From Escherichia coli (lineage in GTDB: Bacteria; Pseudomonadota; Gammaproteobacteria; Enterobacterales; Enterobacteriaceae), in assembly GCF_003334355.1 (NCBI RefSeq), contig NZ_QOWP01000011.1: DNA of 64,000 bases; one strand, written 5' to 3'. The notes beneath the pieces were generated by a model that was not told the DNA's origin, ran no database searches, and saw only the letters and a program-made list of their open reading frames with translations. Shown piece after piece: positions 5,845 through 5,874 of this stretch (position 1 is its first letter; each line of letters begins with the position of its first letter). A program made the position numbers and the translations under genes.

Positions 5845-5874
5845 GTCGGATGCGCTTCGCTTATCCGACCTACA
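5845..5874. repeat. REP-like palindromic element
   Basis: gtcggatgcg...cttatccgacctaca resembles REP consensus gccggatgcg...cttatccggcctaca; imperfect palindrome gtcggat/atccgac. Confidence 0.45.

Follow-up and report, generated by a model that had tools for sequence, protein, structure and literature searches.

Introduction

REPs are among the longest-known bacterial repeat families, and those of E. coli, also called palindromic units, are 20–40 nt long and reportedly come in three types, y, z1 and z2 (Stern 1984; Gilson and Bachellier; Ton-Hoang 2012). A REP is recognised by a conserved GTAG on the 5' side of a palindrome that is made imperfect by a mismatch of two bases (Ton-Hoang 2012, PMC3333891). 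The long z REPs are the z2 type and belong to BIME-2, and the short ones are the z1 type and belong to BIME-1 (Nunvar 2010; Ton-Hoang 2012, PMC3333891). A BIME-1 is built as a y REP, an L linker of ~30 nt or more that holds an IHF site, and a z1 REP; a BIME-2 is a tandem series of y and z2 REPs joined by S linkers. IHF binds to the linkers of BIME-1 and gyrase targets the arrays of BIME-2 (Ton-Hoang 2012, PMC3333891; Nunvar 2010), and published gyrase work reports that within BIME-2 the enzyme prefers the y-type REPs. The subterminal hairpins of the IS200/IS605 family (TnpA Y1 transposases) are a further close parallel: like a REP, they are imperfect palindromes with a tetranucleotide 'guide' on the 5' side, and a Y1 HUH enzyme reads them on one of the two strands.

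Here we describe a short palindrome found downstream of narI in the window, by which we mean the whole 64,000-nt stretch of E. coli DNA that was analysed. It has in common with E. coli REPs the GTAG, a 7-bp GC-rich foot, the AA/GC mismatch, an apical stem-loop, an extragenic site at a 3' end and a high copy number. It differs from a y REP in its apex, which is GGCG-TTTA-CGCC in the y type and GC-GAA-GC (the z1 length) here, on a foot that keeps the y-type G at position 8 and carries a compensated T:A pair. As in BIME-1 or REPIN doublets, two REPs stand inverted and tail to tail in a single copy, and in the orthologues of the pair the first is y-type and the second short z1-type. In contrast to BIME-1, however, the linker is 13 nt long, contains no WATCAANNNNTTR and leads to a partner scoring 8–18 bits, so that the locus is not a BIME-1 and is best named an atypical, degenerate pair. 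The short linker between inverted REPs is shared with BIME-2, but here there is a single pair, no z2 REP and no tandem amplification in E. coli. Unlike the IS200/IS605 hairpins, the element has no transposase gene near it, and the RayT of K-12 is encoded far off, at 247.6 kb. Very probably, then, this is a bona fide enterobacterial REP (one of the repeats recognised by RayT, also TnpA-REP, the REP-associated tyrosine transposase), the surviving half of an inverted pair, and one that likely does little where it stands.

Results and discussion

The spacer between narI and the tyrTV-rtT repeats

Strain PSS-12 matches the window at 100% identity across the query region, and K-12 does so at 96% over the aligned stretch 5760–5960. 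In MG1655 the locus of the REP and its partner lies at 1286593–1286666. The element lies in the 139-nt spacer that runs from the narI terminator to the last RtT copy (Table 1), which confirms the position given in the original prediction. The gene is annotated as narI in MG1655 as well as in PSS-12, the identical strain. Its terminator hairpin appears in the minimum-energy fold and shows compensatory changes in at least eight genera, with a T-run after each (for example, CCCTAC..GTAGGG in Salmonella and CCCTGC..GCAGGG in Kluyvera). A pattern scan for terminators and promoters over 5700–6100 returned no match and missed even the narI terminator; its result was not counted as evidence. The neighbour on the tRNA side is the last of the tyrV trailer repeats, an RtT copy that scores 134.2 bits against RF00391. 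The REP is extragenic, lying between the narI stop codon, from which it is 66 nt away, and this RtT copy, and no ORF of at least 40 aa overlaps it. When 5844–5917 was searched against Rfam, no match was obtained at E up to 1, and the RtT model matched only from 5961 on. In one other strain, APEC E18006 (locus L004, ~190–1500), an IS4-family insertion sequence sits within the narI terminator hairpin, just upstream of an intact REP.

Table 1. Positions of the features at and around the narI/tyrV spacer, in window coordinates.
Feature	Position	Strand	Sequence or basis
narI (nitrate reductase A gamma subunit), last gene of narGHJI	5101..5778	+	ORF and translation
narI intrinsic terminator	5800..5821	+	Hairpin CCCTGC-TTCG-GCGGGG, then TTTTTT; read from sequence
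Intact REP (30 nt in total)	5844..5873	-	Minus-strand reading: GTAG, GTCGGAT, AA, GC-GAA-GC, GC, ATCCGAC, A
Tail-to-tail linker (13 nt)	5874..5886		AGGGGAGGATATT, from CTAC to the GTTG of the partner
Decayed partner REP	5887..5917	+	GTTG GTCCGGT AAACGCGGTGCC ATCGGGC A, i.e. GTTGGTCCGGTAAACGCGGTGCCATCGGGCA
Rho-dependent drop of tyrTV-rtT transcription	~5943	-	Transferred by alignment from MG1655 1286692
RtT copies (n=4)	5961-6092, 6140-6271, 6319-6450, 6616-6747	-	Rfam RF00391
tRNA-Tyr genes	6497-6581, 6791-6875	-	

Sequence and structure of the element

The thirty bases that had first been quoted, GTCGGATGCGCTTCGCTTATCCGACCTACA, are found letter for letter at 5845–5874; they begin 23 nt past the T-run of the narI terminator and end 87 nt short of the nearest RtT copy. 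They contain a perfect 7-nt inverted repeat, GTCGGAT (5845–5851) and ATCCGAC (5863–5869), with 11 nt between the arms. These coordinates hold to within 1 nt, while the element proper is displaced by that one base and belongs to the minus strand. There its GTAG head (5873–5870) stands 5' of the hairpin foot; the plus strand accordingly shows the iREP orientation, with CTAC at the end. The hairpin has a 7-bp foot, a mismatch bulge in which AA (TT on the plus strand, 5861–5862) faces GC (5852–5853), a 2-bp apex and a 3-nt loop, and the element thus fits the published definition of a REP (Ton-Hoang 2012, PMC3333891). The REP head GTAGGYCKGATAAG has a single exact match in the window. Furthermore, the crystal structure of RayT with a REP, GTAGGACGGATAAGGCGTTTACGCCGCATCCG, reported base-specific contacts at T11, A12/A13, G26/C27 and G32 (Messing 2012, PMC3479197): the element retains the counterparts of all of these bases and has the GAT-AA...GC-ATC core in common with the crystallised REP. 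Folded as plus-strand RNA, the element gives a predicted hairpin of −13.3 kcal/mol. Folding z-scores are modest (−1.3 for the plus strand and −2.5 for the minus strand), but this is a weak measure for a short GC-rich hairpin and no weight was placed on them.

Membership in the REP family and subtype

To characterise the element against known REPs, we harvested 53 REPs from 150 kb of K-12 (three regions, two of which were picked as REP-rich) and built a covariance model, R1, from 40 unique ones (y, long z2 and short z1), leaving the candidate out. All 64 kb were scanned on both strands (128 kb) with filters off and with roughly calibrated E-values. The candidate scored 44.9 bits (E=1.8e-11 on this rough calibration) and was the sole significant match, with the next best at 13.9 bits, a gap of 31 bits. 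Training REPs score 33–59 bits, the short ones among them 33–48, and background reaches at most 16; the candidate therefore falls within the range of the family, and its score against the REP model is not a poor one. Together with the published features present in its sequence, this bears out the identification as a REP. The full scan found only this one REP in the window, compared with the 53 in 150 kb of K-12, where two of the three regions were REP-rich by choice. Two weaker R1 matches were rejected as REPs: the one at 25148–25183 is within an ORF, and the one at 45789–45812 is an ordinary terminator hairpin. The latter belongs to an intrinsic terminator at 45789–45817, GCCGGA-CGTCATA-TCCGGC followed by T5 between convergent ORFs, whose stem resembles a REP foot and which scores 13.9 bits.

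The nearest training neighbour is a bona fide short REP, GTAGGCCTGATAAGCGAAGCGCATCAGGCA, identical to the element at 26 of 30 positions. As the four differences amount to two compensated base pairs (C:G to T:A and T:A to G:C), the element can hardly be called degenerate, the word initially applied to it. The GTCGGAT/ATCCGAC foot itself occurs in 5 of the 40 unique K-12 training REPs. When compared with the description of z1 (a short apex, ~29–30 nt and a GCCTGAT/ATCAGGC foot), length and apex agree and the foot has a y-like G8:C25. By its sequence the subtype thus reads as mixed, a y-type foot under an apex of z1 length, and comparison with the orthologues suggests a y-type ancestor. When a 43-nt stretch spanning the element was used as query, none of the 5426 complete E. 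coli genomes lacked a match, the median being 9 places per genome, and all the best places listed fall in unannotated sequence. The MG1655 record NC_000913.3 carries no REP feature anywhere, the spacer after yaaX included, and the missing annotation at the narI locus is therefore uninformative. Older versions of the MG1655 record presumably had a REP annotated in the spacer after yaaX. Any REP scan of E. coli K-12 would find the copy described here, and for practical use it should be annotated as a REP that forms the intact half of a decayed pair, and neither as part of the RtT RNA nor as a site for IHF or gyrase.

The decayed partner

Paired BIME organisation, which had been proposed as a check, was found in the form of a decayed inverted partner 13 nt away. 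Against R1 the partner gets 8.1 bits in this strain (E=4.2, the sixth-ranking match of the window), compared with 18.3 bits (E=0.004) for GTAGGCCCGG..., the allele of MG1655. The head of the partner reads GTTG here, and GTAG is kept in K-12. Among six E. coli alleles compared, the partner varies at 6–7 sites in 31 nt. The hairpin of the candidate is the same in four of the six, and in the other two the closing C of the foot has changed to A, with GTAG now GAAG. The partner region of the window has an exact match in one complete E. coli genome only, versus 4029 for the 43 nt of the candidate. A canonical paralogous pair in the same arrangement, with a 12-nt linker, occupies the yddE-nhoA spacer (L006). 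The partner is a decaying REP, and the candidate is the intact half of a two-REP inverted pair (BIME or REPIN).

Distribution within E. coli

The element is carried by 4720 of the 5426 complete E. coli genomes. In 672 of the 5426 (~12%), Nissle 1917 among them, it is replaced by a seven-gene island that follows directly after the narI stop codon, and the element is therefore dispensable. In the one island genome examined, strain E5 (L085, 467–7348), narI runs straight into the island, and neither the narI terminator nor the REP pair precedes the RtT copy. The island genes are annotated as KAS III-like, epimerase, MBL hydrolase, F390 synthetase-related, PAP2 phosphatase, sterol desaturase and acyl-CoA desaturase. 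The same allele is present at three further loci (L009, L055 and L068). These three and L021 had been considered as the narV paralogue, a reading rejected upon comparison with E5, which identified them as narI followed by the seven-gene island. In E. albertii and two other Escherichia species, a canonical short REP, a ~33-nt linker and a y REP stand between the narI stop codon and sequence identical to the island side of E5 (these loci were read ~300 nt past narI). In E. coli E69 (L044), the first 150 nt after narI hold the terminator and then an AT-rich spacer without a REP. We rejected this locus as an empty site within the species, as its spacer matches none of the 5426 complete genomes; E69 is probably a separate lineage.

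Transcription ends and possible functions

Both transcription units that flank the spacer have ends of their own. On the plus strand the element lies beyond the intrinsic terminator of narGHJI and should therefore rarely be present in nar mRNA. On the minus strand, the 3' ends mapped by DirectRNA-seq (Adams et al. 2021, PMC7815308, supplementary file 2) drop from 1413 reads upstream to 12 downstream without bicyclomycin (BCM), and with BCM they number 1592 upstream and 873 downstream (Rho score 64.6, p=1.5e-181). The position of this drop is approximate, as it rests on 800-nt windows and short reads beside repeats; as transferred to the window, it precedes the partner by 25 nt and the candidate by 70 nt on the minus strand. 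The drop thus comes before both REPs, and few RNA ends map at the element in normal growth: the whole 800 nt that include it hold the 12 reads, against 1413 upstream. The annotated rttR sRNA of K-12, in turn, ends ~440 nt upstream. The suggestion that the element might mark the boundary of the rtT transcript is therefore not borne out.

We propose that the pair sits in a dead zone where two transcription units converge and end, narGHJI at its intrinsic terminator on the plus strand and tyrTV-rtT in a Rho-dependent manner on the minus strand. RayT-type processing of single-strand DNA would account for its deposition or upkeep. Once there, the element most likely does little; at most its hairpin might slow or cap rare transcripts that pass either terminator. 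Such a backstop for escaped transcripts may exist and would be modest, and nothing in the analysis points to it. A counterpoint to neutrality is that conservation is higher in the hairpin than in its partner and flanks (43 nt identical in 4029 genomes, and 29/29 in Pseudocitrobacter vendiensis), which could mean selection. The element is in any case real, ordinary and of an already known kind, and it occupies a usual place for a REP, between convergent transcription ends.

The alternative that survives best, although we consider it unlikely, gives the REP pair a part in the Rho-dependent terminator of the highly transcribed tyrTV-rtT unit, either as its working part or as a backstop that pauses RNA polymerase or caps the RNA and so limits antisense transcription into narI. 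On the minus strand, the pair is preceded at ~25–100 nt by the very strong Rho region (score 64.6), published work (Espeli 2001, Peters 2012 and Dar & Sorek 2018) reportedly connects REPs or BIMEs both with attenuation that depends on Rho and with the protection of transcripts that Rho terminates, and a REP pair at the narI site is retained in several genera. However, the drop in 3' ends (1413 to 12, with its approximate mapping) comes before the REPs, roughly 12% of E. coli genomes lack a REP at the site, and the partner REP is decaying.

It is considerably less probable that the REP serves to stabilise narGHJI mRNA, its 3' hairpin guarding against 3'-5' exonucleases in the classical manner of REPs. 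The predicted hairpin in plus-strand RNA is of a suitable kind, and REP stabilisers are reportedly established in other operons. Yet the element begins 23 nt past the T-run of a terminator conserved in several genera, and most nar transcripts should thus end earlier. The 66 nt that separate it from the stop codon also exceed the 15-nt range discussed for translation-linked effects of REPs, and no nar 3' end is listed in the aerobic-growth data of Adams et al. 2021 (PMC7815308).

Slightly less probable again is a protein-binding site for chromosome organisation, occupied by IHF or by DNA gyrase, both of which had been suggested at the outset. The known binding of IHF to BIME-1 linkers and of gyrase to BIME-2 arrays speaks for such a role, and positive supercoils would be expected to accumulate between convergent, highly expressed units. 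On the other hand, the IHF core WATCAANNNNTTR is absent from 5780–5960 and the linker spans only 13 nt, which argues against IHF; as to gyrase, its known targets are tandem y+z2 BIME-2 arrays, unlike this element with no tandem array and no z2 REPs, and the locus goes unmentioned in the available part of the supplements to the gyrase-mapping paper. Finally, a chance GC-rich palindrome unrelated to REPs, for which one might cite that short GC-rich sequences often fold and that the plus-strand z-score is only −1.3, can be dismissed in view of the R1 E-value (1.8e-11), the 31-bit gap, the GTAG head, the bulge and the many paralogues and orthologues.

The pair in other genera

To place the pair in a wider context, species-representative genomes were scanned with a pattern for the C-terminus of NarI, yielding 75 loci. 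Behind the conserved terminator, Salmonella enterica arizonae/diarizonae, Citrobacter youngae/portucalensis, Yokenella and Lelliottia carry an iREP, a linker of 17–31 nt and a REP, in the same orientation as in E. coli. REPs at these orthologous sites reach 50.9 and 48.4 bits against R1. Intact orthologues of the partner stand at the same relative position in Citrobacter (48.4 and 35.7 bits) and Yokenella (38.0 bits). The first REP of the orthologous pairs is y-type, with an apex of GGC-GAA-GCC in Yokenella compared with GC-GAA-GC in the E. coli element, and the second is short z1-type in Citrobacter and Yokenella; in Salmonella the second REP is ~78% identical to the K-12 partner by hand count. 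Each pair is of its own genus's REP flavour, as far as the REP types given for Salmonella and Klebsiella by Nunvar 2010 allow this to be judged. In the cross-genus REP alignment, 94.5% of cells pair and compensatory changes occur at 4 of 7 foot pairs, although the alignment was fitted to the model and so leans to structure.

The simplest reading suggested by these sequences is that of an old y + linker + z1 pair at the narI site, of which the E. coli version has a short linker and a decaying z1 partner. The site is probably old, and repeated independent insertion there, instead of one old pair, may also account for the distribution. A more far-reaching scenario, which we regard as improbable, is that the narI/tyrV pair is a single orthologous insertion more than 100 million years old across Enterobacteriaceae, re-matched in each genus to its own REP flavour and RayT, and kept as a backup of the tyrTV-rtT Rho terminator that shields narGHJI from antisense transcription. 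The series of pairs across genera and the 12% island allele could make a small case study in the persistence and decay of REP pairs and in the way they follow the REP type of their host.

In Pseudocitrobacter vendiensis (L073), the first REP is identical to the E. coli element at 29/29 positions, with diverged flanks. The first 300 nt after narI in this genome hold three tandem ~100 bp units, each of which joins a terminator-like hairpin to a REP through a spacer. In Pseudocitrobacter faecalis and a MAG (L014 and L016), the REPs are replaced, ~60–190 nt after narI, by a different, long palindromic repeat rich in CCCTCACCC / GGGAGAGGG.
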